The position numbers and the translations under genes are program-made. From positions 124,001 to 188,000 of the forward strand of contig JAXLQJ010000004.1 in the NCBI GenBank assembly GCA_046331705.1: DNA of 64,000 nt, read 5' to 3'. The notes below the pieces were generated by a model. It searched no databases and had not been told where the DNA came from. It saw nothing but the letters and a program-made list of their open reading frames with translations. Below, one piece after another: positions 9,371 to 15,355 of the stretch; the stretch's first letter is position 1; every line of letters starts with the position of its first letter. Source of the stretch: a bacterium. GTDB taxonomy: Bacteria; JADJOY01.

Positions 9371-10744
9371 TCAGACGCGCCGGCCGGCGAGGGCGTGCGC
9401 CCCCGCTCGCTCGACCCGTACCCGCACCATGCGCCCGCGCAGCGCGTCGATCGCGCCCGGGAAATGCACCGGGTGCAGCGACCCGCTGCGGCCTTCCACC
9501 TCGTCGGCGCGCTTGGCGTTGGCGCGTTCGACCAGCACGTCGACGTCGGTGCCCACCCAGCGCTGATTTCGCTTCGCGCGCACCTCGGCTTGCAGCGCCA
9601 GCAAGCGCGCCAAGCGTTCGCTGCGGACGGCCTCCTCAGGCACGTCGTCGAGCTTGAGGGCGCGCGTGCCGGGTCGCGGCGAGTACGAGAAGCAAAACGC
9701 GTTGTCGAACGCCACCTCGCGCACGAGCGACAGCGTCTCGTCGAAATCCGACTCGGTCTCCCCGGGGAAACCGGCGATCAGATCGGTGGTGAGCGCCAGG
9801 TCGGGGCGCGCCTCGCGCAGCCGCGCCACGAGCTCGACGTACTCGCGCCGCGTGTGACCGCGACGCATGCGCGCGAGCACGCGATCGGAGCCCGACTGGA
9901 CCGGCAAGTGGAAATGCCCCGCCAGCCGCTCGAGATCGCGGAACGCCTCGATCAGGCTGGCGCCCACCTCGGCGGGATGCGAGGTGAGAAAGCGGATGCG
10001 CTCGATGCCCGCGACGGCGTGCACGCGTCGCAGCAGCTCGCCCAGATCCGGCTCGCTCGGGTCCTTGCGCCCGTACGACGTGATGTTCTGGCCGATCAGC
10101 GTGACTTCCTTCACACCGCGACCCGCGAGCCGCTCGACCTCGTCGAGCACCGAGGCCGCCGGCCGCGAGATCTCGCGTCCCTGCGTGAAGGGCACGATGC
10201 AAAACGTGCAGAACCGGTCGCAGCCGCGCTGCACGGCGACGAACGCGCGCACGCCGCTCTCGTCCGGCGCCTCGTGATCGCCAAGCACGTCCTGCCAGCG
10301 CCGCTCGAAGCTCAGCGCCGTCGGTCGCGCTCCGCGCTCTCGGGATGCGCGCTCGATGAGCTCGGGCACCGCCGCGAGGTGATGGGTCCCGAACACGAGA
10401 TCGACGTATGGGGCACGCCGGAAGATCCCCTCGCCCACCTGTTGTGCCACGCAACCGCCCACGCCGATCACGACTTCCGGTCGCTCCTCCTTGAGCTCGC
10501 GGAAGCGGCCGAGCGTCGAATACACCTTCTGCTCGGCGTGATCACGGACGCTGCACGTGTTGAGCAGCAGCACGTCGGCATCGCGCGGCGTGGCGGCGCG
10601 TTCGTAGCCGTGCTGCGAGAGATGGTGAACGAGCGCATGCGAGTCGCGCTCGTTCATCTGGCAGCCATAGGTCTCCACGTACACCCGCGGACGCGGGCGC
10701 ACGGCGAGCCATTCCGGCACGCTCGAATCGAGTTGCGAGGACAT
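9371..10744 (-). CDS. miaB: tRNA-2-methylthio-N6-dimethylallyladenosine synthase MiaB
   Basis: TYGCQMNERDS, NTCSVR, GCDRFCTFCIVP, YSPRPGT, C-terminal TRAM domain. Confidence 0.95.
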   Translation of the reverse strand: MSSQLDSSVPEWLAVRPRPRVYVETYGCQMNERDSHALVHHLSQHGYERAATPRDADVLLLNTCSVRDHAEQKVYSTLGRFRELKEERPEVVIGVGGCVAQQVGEGIFRRAPYVDLVFGTHHLAAVPELIERASRERGARPTALSFERRWQDVLGDHEAPDESGVRAFVAVQRGCDRFCTFCIVPFTQGREISRPAASVLDEVERLAGRGVKEVTLIGQNITSYGRKDPSEPDLGELLRRVHAVAGIERIRFLTSHPAEVGASLIEAFRDLERLAGHFHLPVQSGSDRVLARMRRGHTRREYVELVARLREARPDLALTTDLIAGFPGETESDFDETLSLVREVAFDNAFCFSYSPRPGTRALKLDDVPEEAVRSERLARLLALQAEVRAKRNQRWVGTDVDVLVERANAKRADEVEGRSGSLHPVHFPGAIDALRGRMVRVRVERAGAHALAGRRV

Positions 10745-11084
10745 CGCCGGGAACCTAGCCCTCGGGTCCGGGGCGGTCAAGAATTCCGCCGCCCTCGCTG
10801 CGCCAGCGCCGAGCGGGCGTGAGCATGCGAGAACGCACGCCGCTCCCCTCTCGGACTCCGCGAGCGCGGTCGATCCGTCCGCGAGCCAGCGGCGAGCCGA
10901 CGAGCGAAGCGAGGCGACTCAGGGGTGGGGCCCCGTTCGGATTCACTCCGAACGGCGCGGGGGCTGGAACAACCCGACGTGGTTCCCCGACGGCATGCTC
11001 CGCGCCCCGGTCTCCACGCTCGCCATCCATCTCTCCGCGAGCCGGGGCGAGCGACACGGCGAGGCGACCGGCTTTCCACGCTTC

Positions 11085-12306
11085 GTCAAGGTCGTCTTTT
11101 GGCTTCGGTGTCCAAGCTTTCCGGCGAGTTGGTCGAGGTCGTGCCGTCGCGGAGCACGGATCAAGACGTCGAGCAGCCGATCGGCGATGCCGCGCAGGGC
11201 GCGTTCGTGCTCGTGGCCGGCCGCGGCTGCGTAGTGCATGCGGCCTCGCTCATCGTTGTTGATGTAATGGCGACCAGTGCGGACCGCGTCGCGAAGCCGG
11301 CGTTGCACGCGCGTCGCATGAGGATGCGACCCTTCGCTTGCCGGTCTTTCTCGGACGGTGCTGCGCCGCAGGTGCGCAAGGTGCCGACGTCGCGCTCCTC
11401 AATGGACCGCGGCTCGTGCGTCGCCGTCACGATGCGCCCGGCGCCGGGAAACGACTGGACGATCGCGACGTCAGACGGAGAGGGCAGCGGTCGCCGGACG
11501 GCTCGCCCGTTCGCCGGCGGAGGCGAGCCGCCGCAGCGTCGTCGGGCGCTCCGCCCGATGGCTCGTCCAGGTCGTCCACACCTGATCGATTGATGGCGAC
11601 ACTCGCGCAGTTGCTGCTCAACGAGCTGTAACCGCGGCAGCATCCGACGTGCGAGCTCGCCCTCGACCGCACCGGTGCAACGGTCAGCGCCGGCTCTCGC
11701 AGCCGAGCTACGACCTGATCGGCGGCGATCCGACGGATCCGACGCGCTTTCATCACGGCCACCGTTCGGCGCAGCCGCTGCGCGTCCGCGGCTTCGGTGC
11801 ACGCGCCAGCAGGTCCCAGATCAGGGCCGTCGACCGCCGAGCTGAGCTTCAAGACCTGCGGGTAGTAGCGATGCAGCTGCTCCCAGAGCTGATTGCTGAG
11901 CCGACCGAGCTCGTCGGACGTCGTGAGCGGGTCCCCCGCAGCGCCGTTCGGGTCCAGCTGGACCCGAGCGACAGCGACTCGTCGTGCGCAACCCATCTGC
12001 ACCGACGAATGCATCAAGCGTCGTCCTTCGCGCCACCGACCGAGGACGATCCGAAAACGGTCGATCTGCTTCGGTTGATCGCGAAGACGCGAGCCGTGTG
12101 CCAGCAGCGTCTCCGATCGCGCCGCGTGCTCGATCGCCACCGCCACCTGGTCGAGATGACCGCCGGTGGCCGCGGTCAACCTCGACAATCTCGCGAGTCC
12201 CTTGGCGAGTGCTCGACCCGGACCTCGGCGACACGGCGCCGACTAGCGTCGATGACGCACACCGATGATGCTCGCTACCCCAGTCGATCCCGCCCACCAC
12301 GACCAT
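11085..12306 (-). pseudogene. IS110-family (DEDD/RuvC-like) recombinase, multiply frameshifted
   Basis: Fragments in alternating frames: MVVVGGIDWGSEHH, VAVAIE, KQIDRFR, KDD..DA, NQLWEQLHRYYPQ, FPGAG, MRRACN, ALRGIADRLLDVL; GGAGGAGG RBS upstream. Confidence 0.85.
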
Positions 12307-12329
12307 CCCCCGGTGCTCCGCCTCCTCCG

Positions 12330-12509
12330 TTGGAGGGTTCACCGCGACCCTGCCTGGCCGTCGCCCCTGTCGGGCTCGAAGCGCGACTTTCCACTGGACG
12401 TGAAACCACGGGCCTCCGGCTGGGGCACACGTCCCGAGTAGGCCGAGGCGCGGGGTGGGCCAGCGCTCCCAGCCAGGCGGACCGGGTAAACCTTGTTGAG
12501 GACAAGCGT
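12330..12509 (-). ncRNA. Putative IS110 bridge RNA (5' hairpin, target-binding loop, donor-binding loop)
   Basis: Minus strand: GCCCACCCC (12452-12460) and ACUCGGG (12433-12439) match the two halves of the repeat target; UGGAAAGUC (12385-12393) matches the element junction; loops closed by stems CUGGCUGGG/CCCAGCCGG and CC-UGG..CGUC/GACG-GCCAGG. Confidence 0.7.
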
Positions 12510-12876
12510 GGTGGGGCCCCGTTCGGATTCTCCGAACGGCGCGGGGTGGAACAGCCCGACGTGTTCCCGACGGCATGCTCCGCGCGGTCTCCACGCTCGC
12601 CATCCATCTCTCCGCGAGCCGGGCAGGCGAGCCGACGAGCGAAGCGAGGCGACTCGGGGGTGGGGCCCCGTTCGGTTCACTCCGAACGGGGCGGGGAGCT
12701 GGAACAGCCCGACGTGGTTCCCCGACGGCATGCTCCGCGCCCCGGTCTCCACGCTCGCCATCCATCTCTCCGCGAGCCGGCAGGCGAGCCGACGAGCGAA
12801 GCGAGGCGACTCGGGGGTGGGGCCCCGTTCGGATTCACTCCGAACGGGGCGGGGGGCTGGAACAGCCCCCCGCAAA

Positions 12877-13902
12877 TCAATTGATCAGCACCCGCTGATA
12901 CTCACGCAGCGACTCGAGCACCTCGCCGGCACCGTAGACGACCGCCTTGAGCGGGTCCTTGGCGCGGAAGATGCGCAGGTCGGTCTCCTGGTGCAGTCGC
13001 GGGCCGAGGCCGCGAATCATCGAGCCGCCGCCGGCGAGCACGATGCCCTGGTCGAGGATGTCGCTCGCCAGCTCGGGCGGCGTCTGATCGAGGGCGTTGC
13101 GGATCGATTTCACGATGTGCTCGATCGGCTCGCGCAACGCCTCGCGGACCATCTCGTCGGTGAGCGTCACGGTGGCCGGAACGCCGCGCACCAGGTCGCG
13201 TCCGCGCACCGTGATCTCCTCGGGCTCCTTGAGCGCCACGGCGGAGCCGATCTCGAGCTTCACCCGCTCGCTCTCGTAGAGCCCGATCAGCACCTGAAAG
13301 CGTTCGCGCACGTAAGCCTGGATCGCTTCGTCCATCTCGTCGCCAGCCACGCGCATCGAGGTGCTGTAGGCGGTCGCGAGCATGCTGATGACCGCGATCT
13401 CGGTGGTCCCGCCGCCGATGTCGACGATCATGTTTCCCTTCGCCTCGTGCACCGGCAGCTTGGCGCCCAGCGCCGCGGCCATCGGCTCTTCCATCAGGTG
13501 GACCTTCTTGGCGCCCGCCTGCAGCGCCGCATCGACCACCGCCTTCTTCTCGACCTGGGTGATGCCGGACGGCACCGCGACCAGCATGATGGGCTTGAAG
13601 AGCGGGCTGCGCTTCACCGCCATGCTCAGGAAGTGGCGGATCATCTGATTCGCGATGTCGAAGTCGGCGATCACGCCGTCCTTGAGCGGCCGGATCGCGC
13701 GGAGCCGCTCCGGGGTGCGCCCGTACATCGCCTTCGCCTCGCGGCCGATGGCCAGGATGCCCTGACCGTTCTGCGGCACCACCACCACGCTCGGCTCGTC
13801 GAGCACCACGCCCTTGCCACGCACCCAGATCAGGGTGTTCGCGGTGCCCAGATCGATGGCGACGTCGCCCGATCCCAGCCAGTCGTTGATCCGGCGGATC
13901 AT
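12877..13902 (-). CDS. mreB: MreB/Mbl-family actin homologue (no mreCD adjacent)
   Basis: IDLGTANT, RPLKDGVIADF, EEPMAAALGA, DIGGGTTE, VLAGGG motifs. Confidence 0.9.
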   Translation of the reverse strand: MIRRINDWLGSGDVAIDLGTANTLIWVRGKGVVLDEPSVVVVPQNGQGILAIGREAKAMYGRTPERLRAIRPLKDGVIADFDIANQMIRHFLSMAVKRSPLFKPIMLVAVPSGITQVEKKAVVDAALQAGAKKVHLMEEPMAAALGAKLPVHEAKGNMIVDIGGGTTEIAVISMLATAYSTSMRVAGDEMDEAIQAYVRERFQVLIGLYESERVKLEIGSAVALKEPEEITVRGRDLVRGVPATVTLTDEMVREALREPIEHIVKSIRNALDQTPPELASDILDQGIVLAGGGSMIRGLGPRLHQETDLRIFRAKDPLKAVVYGAGEVLESLREYQRVLIN

Positions 13903-13933
13903 CCCCACACGCTCCCCTGTCTCGCCGTCGAGT

Positions 13934-15355
13934 TCATGCCTGCGCCGCCAGCGCGCGTTCGCGCGCGTGCTCCAGACGATCGAGCGCCCGCCGCAGCAGG
14001 CCCTCGGGATCGCGCGCATCGACCTCGGAGCGCGCCGATACCACCCGCACTGGAAGCGTGCTGGTCGTGTCGCCCACCTCGAACACCTTGTCCGCCAGCG
14101 CGCGCTCCACGAGCTGGCGGGTCCGATCCTCGGCGCGGCTCGATTCCACCTGACACGCCACCGCCCACGTGCCCGAGCCGATCTGCGTGATCCAGGGCGC
14201 GGGGACCAGCACCCGCGCGATCACACCCAACGCCTCGTCGATCATCCGATCCACCGCCGCATGGCCGTGCTGGCGGTTGCGCCGTGTGAGTCCCTCGGGG
14301 TCCACCACCAGGATCTCGACCGGATCGCGCTGCTTGAGCCACCGCGAGACTTCGTCGAGGAAGCGACCGTAGCGCACCACCGCCTCGGGCGCCCCCCCCA
14401 CTCTCGCCACCAGCCGCGAGCGGCTCTCGGCGTTGGCGAGCGCCAGCGCCGAGGCGTCGGCAACCACGCCGAGCACGTCCGTCATCTGGCGCGGATAGGC
14501 GACCGGCTCGGTGCTGGTGAACGCCAGCACGCCGAGCGAGCGACCCGCCGCGCGCAGCGGCACGCCCAGGAACGACTGCATCGGGATCCGCGGCTCGCCG
14601 GGATACGCCAACACGGTGCGCTTGGGCCGCTCGTCGAGCCCCGAGAGATAGATCATGGTTCCCTTGCGATCCACCCAGCCGATCAGGCTCGTGCTCGGTG
14701 CGATCTCGGCGCCGAGCAAGCGCAGATGCTCGGGGCCGTGCGCGCGCGCCACCCACAGCGGGCCGCCGGCGCGTTCGGAAACCGCGACCAGGAGCCCGGT
14801 CCGCGGCACGATCGTCGTGGGCATCGTGGCGATCCGATCGAGCACCAGCTCGGGGTCCTCGAGCCCGGCGATGTCGCGACACAGCTCGCGCGCCGCCTCC
14901 AAGCTGGGCGAGCCGCCCAGCATCTGCCGGATCTGGCGCTGCCGCTCGAGTCGGCGAGCGATCTCCTCGGCGAAGCCCACCAGGATGGAATCGGTGCGCG
15001 GCGAGAACTGGTACGTCCGCTTCGAATCGACCGCCAGCACGCCCACCCCCGACCCGAGACGCACCGGCACGCCCAGGAACGCCTTGAGGTCCTCGGGAGC
15101 ACCGTAGAGCAGGAGTGAGCGGGCGTCATAGCGGAACTTGGCGACGTGGATCGGGCGATCGTTCTCCGCCACCAAGCCGATCAAGCCCTGGCCGGGGCTC
15201 ACTACGCAGTTCTCGACGACGTGCTCGCTCAGGCTGGCGTGGCTCGCGAGCTTCAGGAGCCCGTCCTCTTCCGGCAGGAAGAGCGCTGCGGTGAATGCGT
15301 CCGTGACGTTCCAGACGAGTCGAACGAGCCCGTCGAGGTCCGGCGCGAGATCCAT
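13934..15355 (-). CDS. Tandem GAF-domain protein with degenerate GGDEF-like C-terminus
   Basis: Two GAF-like repeats (GQGLIGLV..FLGVPV..GVLAVDS; SLIGWV..FLGVPL..LGVLAF); C-terminus NRQHGHAAVDRMI..QIGSGTWAV..PEGLLRRALDRL. Confidence 0.7.
   Translation of the reverse strand: MDLAPDLDGLVRLVWNVTDAFTAALFLPEEDGLLKLASHASLSEHVVENCVVSPGQGLIGLVAENDRPIHVAKFRYDARSLLLYGAPEDLKAFLGVPVRLGSGVGVLAVDSKRTYQFSPRTDSILVGFAEEIARRLERQRQIRQMLGGSPSLEAARELCRDIAGLEDPELVLDRIATMPTTIVPRTGLLVAVSERAGGPLWVARAHGPEHLRLLGAEIAPSTSLIGWVDRKGTMIYLSGLDERPKRTVLAYPGEPRIPMQSFLGVPLRAAGRSLGVLAFTSTEPVAYPRQMTDVLGVVADASALALANAESRSRLVARVGGAPEAVVRYGRFLDEVSRWLKQRDPVEILVVDPEGLTRRNRQHGHAAVDRMIDEALGVIARVLVPAPWITQIGSGTWAVACQVESSRAEDRTRQLVERALADKVFEVGDTTSTLPVRVVSARSEVDARDPEGLLRRALDRLEHARERALAAQA

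Follow-up and report, generated by a model that had tools for sequence, protein, structure and literature searches.

A bridge RNA, very probably aimed at a host tandem repeat, in the left end of a G+C-rich IS110-family element

The region under study, 12330–12509 of the 64,000-nucleotide stretch of bacterial DNA analysed here (the window), is very probably the left non-coding end of an IS110-group element and the source of an IS621-type bridge RNA. The element itself, 11072–12509 on the minus strand, is by its sequence assigned to the IS110 family as an ordinary member of a large, already described kind. It interrupts one unit of a dispersed ~158-nt host tandem repeat, and we consider it highly likely, from comparison of related sequences, that the two-loop RNA in its left end is a genuine system aimed at that repeat. 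On the window sequence alone the bridge-RNA pattern is suggestive and no more; the support beyond chance for its arrangement of guides and loops comes from relatives. Two of these, both found in one sister genome of the same genus, serve as reference throughout. IS-A (G003:C3:519847-521405) is a full-length copy, 84% identical to the window element, with an open frame of 445 codons, whereas IS-B is more distantly related, with 47–55% protein identity, and its sequence is divided between two contig ends. The element and its immediate surroundings comprise the following features.

11072–12509, minus strand: IS110-family insertion sequence, 1438 nt as assembled; identity to IS-A extends over its whole length
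11086–12306, minus strand: reading frame of the transposase, split into many frames in the assembly (three-frame translation)
11070–11071, minus strand: core CC at the right junction; GGAAAG-CC-GGTCGCC in the window, GGAAAGT-CC-CGAGT in IS-A
12510–12520, minus strand: left flank GGGGCCCCACC, the left target within the repeat unit; the assembled text lacks the core copy and the element's first three letters
12510–12868, minus strand: host tandem repeat left of the element, 2.3 units of ~158 nt (Tandem Repeats Finder, period 158, 92% matches; BLAST)
10878–11071: continuation of the host repeat array right of the element (BLAST of the unit)
12652–12665, minus strand: exact copy of the cognate target CCCCACCCCCGAGT, without an insertion, in the neighbouring unit
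12809–12822, minus strand: second exact copy of the cognate target CCCCACCCCCGAGT, likewise without an insertion, in the unit after that

The repeat array with its element is bordered by mreB-like and miaB-like frames, one on each side. BLAST with the 159-nt repeat unit returned 97 hits, which are spread over at least 20 contigs of the 8.17-Mb genome and frequently form arrays. It placed unit positions 1–53 to the left of the element and 55–159 to its right, and this puts the element at the core of one copy of the target. The exact 14-mer target occurs 10 times in this genome, compared with ~0.5 occurrences expected from its G+C content of 70.1%. Core CC is found on both sides of IS-A and of IS-B; the assembled text of the window has the right copy but lacks the left one. 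The ~158-nt repeat has an internal hairpin, CCCCGTTCGG...CCGAACGGGG, and forms tandem arrays at many intergenic places (contigs C1, C26, C60, C62 and others); it may be REP/BIME-like or a mobile miniature element. The window target lies directly 3′ of this G+C-rich hairpin. A target-side hairpin was considered as a family feature of the kind reported for ISPpu10 and was set aside, the fold signal in 62 distinct left flanks of the family being a weak tendency (mean z −0.57; 10 of 62 below −1.5). Searches of the element's own genome, both by sequence and with the bridge-RNA model described below, found no other copy. Elsewhere in the same genome, two short stretches resemble the 3′ part of the transposase gene at 76–78% identity (L002, G000:C88:18393-18470; L003, G000:C49:35084-35134); neither matched the bridge-RNA model, and they probably represent other IS110-family genes.

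Three-frame translation of the window places the GIDWGSEHH and QLWEQLHRYYPQVLKL pieces of the transposase in different frames. The intact protein of IS-A (P0001, 445 aa) matches PF01548 with 110.3 bits (cut-off 29), PF02371, the C-terminal domain with the conserved serine, with 32.3 bits (cut-off 21.3), and NF033542, the curated NCBI model ‘IS110 family RNA-guided transposase’, with 153.2 bits (cut-off 140). Across 32 homologues, residues D13, E66, D106 and D109 are fully or almost fully conserved, and S313, invariant in alignment A1, would by its position be the catalytic serine. A phmmer search of the PDB with P0001 as a single sequence gave no match; the family profile matched the IS621 transposase (8wt6_A) at E 1.9e-12 and also the ISCro4 transposase. 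Among 8000 scored candidates, 2764 proteins were homologues of P0001 at E ≤ 1e-20 carrying both PF01548 and PF02371; the element is part of a large and well-populated subgroup. The window's own intact protein was sought among the homologues, of which the closest, P0002, is not identical to it. A protein search of genome contigs with a single relative's protein retrieved only that relative, and the search of the phylum covered 6 genomes.

As assembled, the window element is shorter than its intact relative (1438 versus 1562 nt) and differs from IS-A by 193 substitutions, 49 deletions (126 nt) and 1 insertion. Such a record might mean that the copy has truly decayed and is dead, the deletions being biological, as in deletion-biased decay of pseudogenes, and the RNA a fossil here with active relatives elsewhere. 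This would agree with the preponderance of deletions over insertions, with a frame broken many times, with the sole copy in the genome and with the open mreB-like and miaB-like frames alongside, which imply that the assembly is not bad everywhere. Moreover, no indexed sequencing run contains at least half of the words of the stretch (20 rows from 12 studies have 0.18–0.19), and the stretch was not found in any run recorded as RNA. Nevertheless, we regard decay as improbable. Over 11072–12509, contigs from four runs of four studies differ from the window at only 0, 1, 3 and 0–1 letters, yet they carry 124–134 gap letters relative to it; one contig of 1624 nt has 1560 of its own letters over the window's 1438. 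The insertions listed for the contigs fall at places where IS-A has letters and the window has deletions (11090, 11130–11135, 11156–11158, 11225–11229 and 11267–11278). It is very unlikely that natural decay would leave 49 deletions with hardly any substitutions; the pattern is unlike gene decay, and we conclude that it probably reflects assembly error. Furthermore, the substitutions that separate the window from IS-A are in excess at third codon positions (26.2%, against 8.8% at first and 9.1% at second positions, with 5.8% in the non-coding ends). Short-read polishing of long-read assemblies fails in repeats, and the missing letters, ~125 within the element and ~10 more in 54 nt of the adjacent repeat, lie in such DNA. 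Overall, the deletions are likely to be assembly errors confined to repeated DNA, the natural element being co-linear with the intact relative. Most likely, these errors account for the broken gene and left junction, for the damaged right donor guide and for the loss of one hairpin per loop, and other repeated stretches of the assembly may carry errors of the same kind. The case for assembly error rests on the contigs; that the frame is open in them we infer from their co-linearity with IS-A. The first-pass annotation of this DNA had envisaged a recombination assay with a repaired transposase, a repair that is probably unnecessary, the letters in question being present in short-read contigs of four studies. 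Contig cover is absent at 12512–12600 in three runs. In run X2, the contig continues beyond the right end into sequence that differs from the window flank and would match the right target guide at only three of five non-core places; either that copy is inserted at a near-cognate site, or the contig follows a mixed path through repeats.

The left end, with the putative promoter halves, can be read as follows.

12348–12484, minus strand: predicted bridge RNA core, a target-binding stem-loop followed by a donor-binding stem-loop (full-length match to covariance model R1)
12416–12476, minus strand: target-binding stem-loop; basal stem CUGGCUGGG (12476–12468) pairs with CCCAGCCGG (12424–12416) in nine pairs, one of them G-U, and inner stem GCGC (12466–12463) with GUGC (12428–12425); the distal hairpin is shortened in the window, where three of its letters are missing
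12452–12460, minus strand: left target guide GCCCACCCC, in the sense of left target plus core; 8/9 to CCCCACC+CC of the repeat
12433–12439, minus strand: right target guide ACUCGGG, reverse complement of core plus right target (CC+CGAGT); 7/7 to the repeat
12385–12393, minus strand: left donor guide UGGAAAGUC, equal to the IS-A right end TGGAAAGT plus the first core C; 8/9 to the window right end as assembled
12366–12370, minus strand: ACAGG, remnant of the right donor guide GUACAGG, three letters of which are absent
12505–12509, minus strand: ACGCT in the left end, remnant of the putative −10 half TACGCT, whose first T is absent from the window text
11084–11089, minus strand: TTGACG, putative −35 half, which in IS-A lies 13 nt before the core

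The letters of a CTTGT/ACAAG pair, of the stem and of the guides had been read on the minus strand in the first-pass annotation, and all of them are found where it placed them. Its two target guides indeed match CCCCACC-CC-CGAGT at 8/9 and 7/7, and this target is carried as CCCCACCCCCGAGT by the repeat units at 12652–12665 and 12809–12822; the left target guide thus fits the common repeat variant of its own genome at 8/9 and not 9/9. Likewise, the left donor guide matches the right-end/core junction of the assembled window at 8/9, as had been noticed. The hairpin assigned to CTTGT (12506–12502) and ACAAG (12496–12492) fared less well: its energy is −3.2 kcal/mol, 129 of 200 shuffles fold as well and it is absent from both IS-A and IS-B. 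Its 5′ arm overlaps the putative −10 half, so that the hairpin probably lies outside the RNA. The minimum-free-energy fold of the window text does not give the two-loop shape, and its energy is no better than that of shuffles (z −0.92; z 0.15). A scan of 10000–14000 against Rfam 15 at E ≤ 10 gave no bridge-RNA match, although Rfam 15 may not contain such a model. Five weak matches in the same interval are to unrelated snoRNA and miRNA models, below thresholds and at chance level. Two of them lie inside the host repeat, at 12590–12652 and 12748–12809, and score 20 bits against a gathering score of 40 for a trypanosomatid snoRNA model; these are chance matches to the GAUGGAUGG-containing stem of the repeat.

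In IS-A, the guides can be compared with intact ends. Its left junction reads GGGGCCCACC-CC followed by TGTACGCTT, the element starting with TGTACGC, and its right junction reads GCGTGGAAAGT-CC followed by CGAGTC, the right end being TGGAAAGT. The target guides of IS-A are those of the window: GCCCACCCC fits the flank GCCCACC+CC at 9/9 and ACUCGGG fits at 7/7. Its left donor guide, GGAAAGUC, equals the right end GGAAAGT plus the first core C (8/8), and its right donor guide, GUACAGG, is the reverse complement of CC+TGTAC, that is, of core plus left end (7/7); a GCGC-loop-GCGC hairpin lies between the guides of each pair. The target guides of IS-B, GCUCGCCCC and GUGUAGG, are wholly unlike those of IS-A, and they match the IS-B flanks, GCTCGCC-CC and CC-TACAC, at 9/9 and 7/7. 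The right donor guide of IS-B, AUACAGG, pairs with CC+TGTAT, its left end being TGTAT. The comparison also accounts for a misfit reported in the window, where AGGGG had been set against an expected right donor guide AGCGUGG. This expectation was mistaken: the true left end, TGTAC, calls for GUACAGG, which is intact in IS-A and reduced to ACAGG in the window, and the window lacks both CCTGT at the junction and three letters of the right donor guide.

For a family-wide test, metagenome contigs were scanned with the alignment of 32 homologues, which gave 537 encoding stretches among 600 pattern matches; 80 loci were kept. Three loci with <200 nt upstream were dropped, leaving 77 together with IS-A, IS-B and the window. 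The conserved donor-guide anchor was present in 76 of these, L044, L047, L088 and the window being without it. After removal of four duplicates, 72 sequences were aligned, guides were read by alignment column and the guide test was carried out on 71 parsed left ends. Because element ends were located by each element's own donor guides, donor matches arise by construction and only the test of the target guides is independent. Among 40 distinct right target guides, 28 match their right flank at 7/7, nine at 6/7 and three at fewer places, whereas cross-pairings reach at least 6/7 in 2.3% of cases. Left target guides, taken in the best of three registers, match at 9/9 in 11, 8/9 in 16, 7/9 in 17 and fewer places in 11 of 55; 27 of 55 thus reach at least 8/9 on their own flanks, against 0.8% of cross-pairings. 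The 11 left guides at 6/9 or less reflect partly problems of register and partly near-cognate sites. Four members (L033, L071, L080 and L083) have a CT core, and CT is likewise read by both of their right guides, target and donor, and at their right-end/core junctions. The left target guide is also CT in L033, L071 and L083, while that of L080 ends in CC against a CT flank. One of the loci without the anchor, L044, has a transposase homologue that is 51% identical and an upstream region with neither a match to the bridge-RNA model nor the anchor; its left end may be truncated or replaced.

The fold was assessed on the same relatives. The structural alignment comprised 58 of 70 distinct sequences, 12 near-duplicate or truncated rows being left out, and yielded a consensus of 34 pairs in six helices, in which 91.2% of cells are paired and 26 of the 34 pairs show changes on both sides. 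In helix 1, the target-binding stem, 12 of 14 pairs have changed on both sides and 94.6% of cells are paired. None of 500 shuffles reached any of the five measures, and sliding the partner by 1–3 columns left at most 50.3% of cells paired. The covariance model R1, built from the 58 relatives without the window, matches the window over its full length at 12348–12484 (62.3 bits, E 9.4e-11), and this is its sole match in the window's genome. The window's lower score is explained by its shortened hairpins and missing guide letters: on other loci 22 of 23 score 89–126 bits, although many of these are close to seed members and their scores are not independent. Two weaker R1 matches were seen in the sister genome, one of 52.7 bits (L104, G003:C1:431251-431380) and one of 15.9 bits in which most of the first loop is absent (L012:1148-1247); both may be relics or divergent elements.

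Taken together, the intact relatives, the covariation between guides and flanks and that between the arms of the stems bear out what the first-pass annotation had claimed from the letters: a bispecific, IS621-like RNA, encoded in the left end, whose target loop precedes its donor loop, whose core is CC and whose target lies within the host repeat. Right target guides covary with their flanks among homologues (at least 6/7 in 37 of 40), and the two-loop fold is conserved in the 58-sequence structure. That the left end is instead only a leader regulating expression of the transposase, its flank matches being due to chance in G+C-rich, C-run-rich DNA, is extremely improbable: the sequences are low in complexity, with runs of C and G, fold energies are no better than those of shuffles and small RNAs have been proposed to modulate recombinase expression in an IS110 member (mentioned in PMC11208160), yet the target guides differ among relatives and track each relative's own flanks (37/40 against 2.3% of cross-pairings), IS-A and IS-B have wholly different guides that are each perfect for their own flanks and the change to a CT core recurs across the loops (in both right guides 4/4 and in the left target guide 3/4).

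A bridge RNA aimed at the repeat suggests the following cycle, in which excision, transcription and strand exchange are steps that we infer by homology. The element would excise as a circle, and its right end, core and left end, once joined, would form a sigma-70-type promoter (TTGACG, 17 nt, TACGCT) from which the left end would be transcribed. In the joined ends of IS-A, the 17 nt between TTGACG and TACGCT include the 2-nt core and TG. Among distinct right ends, 35 of 47 have a hexamer matching TTGACA at five or more of six places, 13 nt before the core, and TANNNT is found at positions 3–8 in 48 of 53 distinct left ends. A promoter formed across the circle junction is described for the IS110 family in PMC11208160, and we propose that here, too, the putative −35 and −10 halves would make a promoter only when the ends join in the circle. 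The transcript would then fold into two stem-loops with internal loops, the second of which, through GGAAAGUC and GUACAGG, would read the right-end/core/left-end junction of the element. Finally, the DEDD/Ser recombinase would exchange strands at the CC core, leading to insertion into CCCCACC-CC-CGAGT within the ~158-nt repeat, which is present many times in the genome.

The closest known system is IS621 of Escherichia coli (Durrant et al. 2024, PMC11208160; structures 8wt6–8wt9), with which the window element shares the order of a DEDD domain followed by a Ser domain. Left guides of IS621 pair with the bottom strand and right guides with the top strand, both including the core, and the published bridge-RNA model has a variable target loop first and a conserved donor loop second (PMC11208160). 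The RNA in the left end, the order of the loops, the strand logic and the inclusion of the core by guides in both loops are the same here, as are a core common to target and donor and a target in a host repeat, which for IS621 is REP (PMC11208160); the promoter that is split over the circle junction in IS621 has a putative counterpart here. The IS621 core is CT, whereas that of the window subgroup is CC, with CT in four members. The right target guide pairs over 4 nt in IS621 and over 7 nt (2+5) in the subgroup, whose left donor guide comprises 7 nt and only the first core base. In addition, the guides and ends of the window element are very G+C-rich compared with those of IS621, and the IS621 chains have 328 aa while the IS-A protein has 445 aa, their similarity being detectable by profile only (E 1.9e-12) and not with a single sequence. 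In ISPpu10 of Pseudomonas putida, all insertions are in copies of one conserved intergenic repeat (bioRxiv 10.64898/2026.03.19.712850); the window element likewise lies in a copy of a host repeat. A stem-loop next to the target is also reported there, and the window repeat has one too, although as a family tendency this is weak. IS1111-group (seekRNA) elements have a transposase of the same superfamily and RNA-guided targeting; their RNA, however, is located in the right end and they have longer subterminal inverted repeats, according to PMC11208160, whereas the window element has its RNA in the left end.

From the raw sequence of an uncultured, high-G+C lineage one can thus directly read the bridge-RNA logic that was published in 2024. 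The relatives add a CC-core subgroup that is well supported, has a right target guide of 7 nt and strongly conserves its donor, and this subgroup could supply further orthologues for genome engineering. More tentatively, and with less than even confidence, the element may be a currently active, high-G+C, CC-core bridge recombinase that is colonising a genus-specific tandem repeat, being near-unchanged in sludge and wastewater from 2015 to 2025 in four studies, and may represent a natural 14-bp (7+2+5) system orthogonal to IS621. The pseudogene-like appearance of the window copy and its one misfitting guide most likely stem from the ~125 letters missing from the assembly inside repeats. For repeat-borne elements in such assemblies, reads should be checked before an element is called dead or is ‘repaired’. 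A last observation concerns column 37 of alignment A3, where the left target guide of most subgroup members ends in U opposite the second C of the core and would therefore pair with the bottom strand through a G-U wobble; the window, IS-A and IS-B all carry C at this position. This wobble might matter for directionality or for strand exchange.
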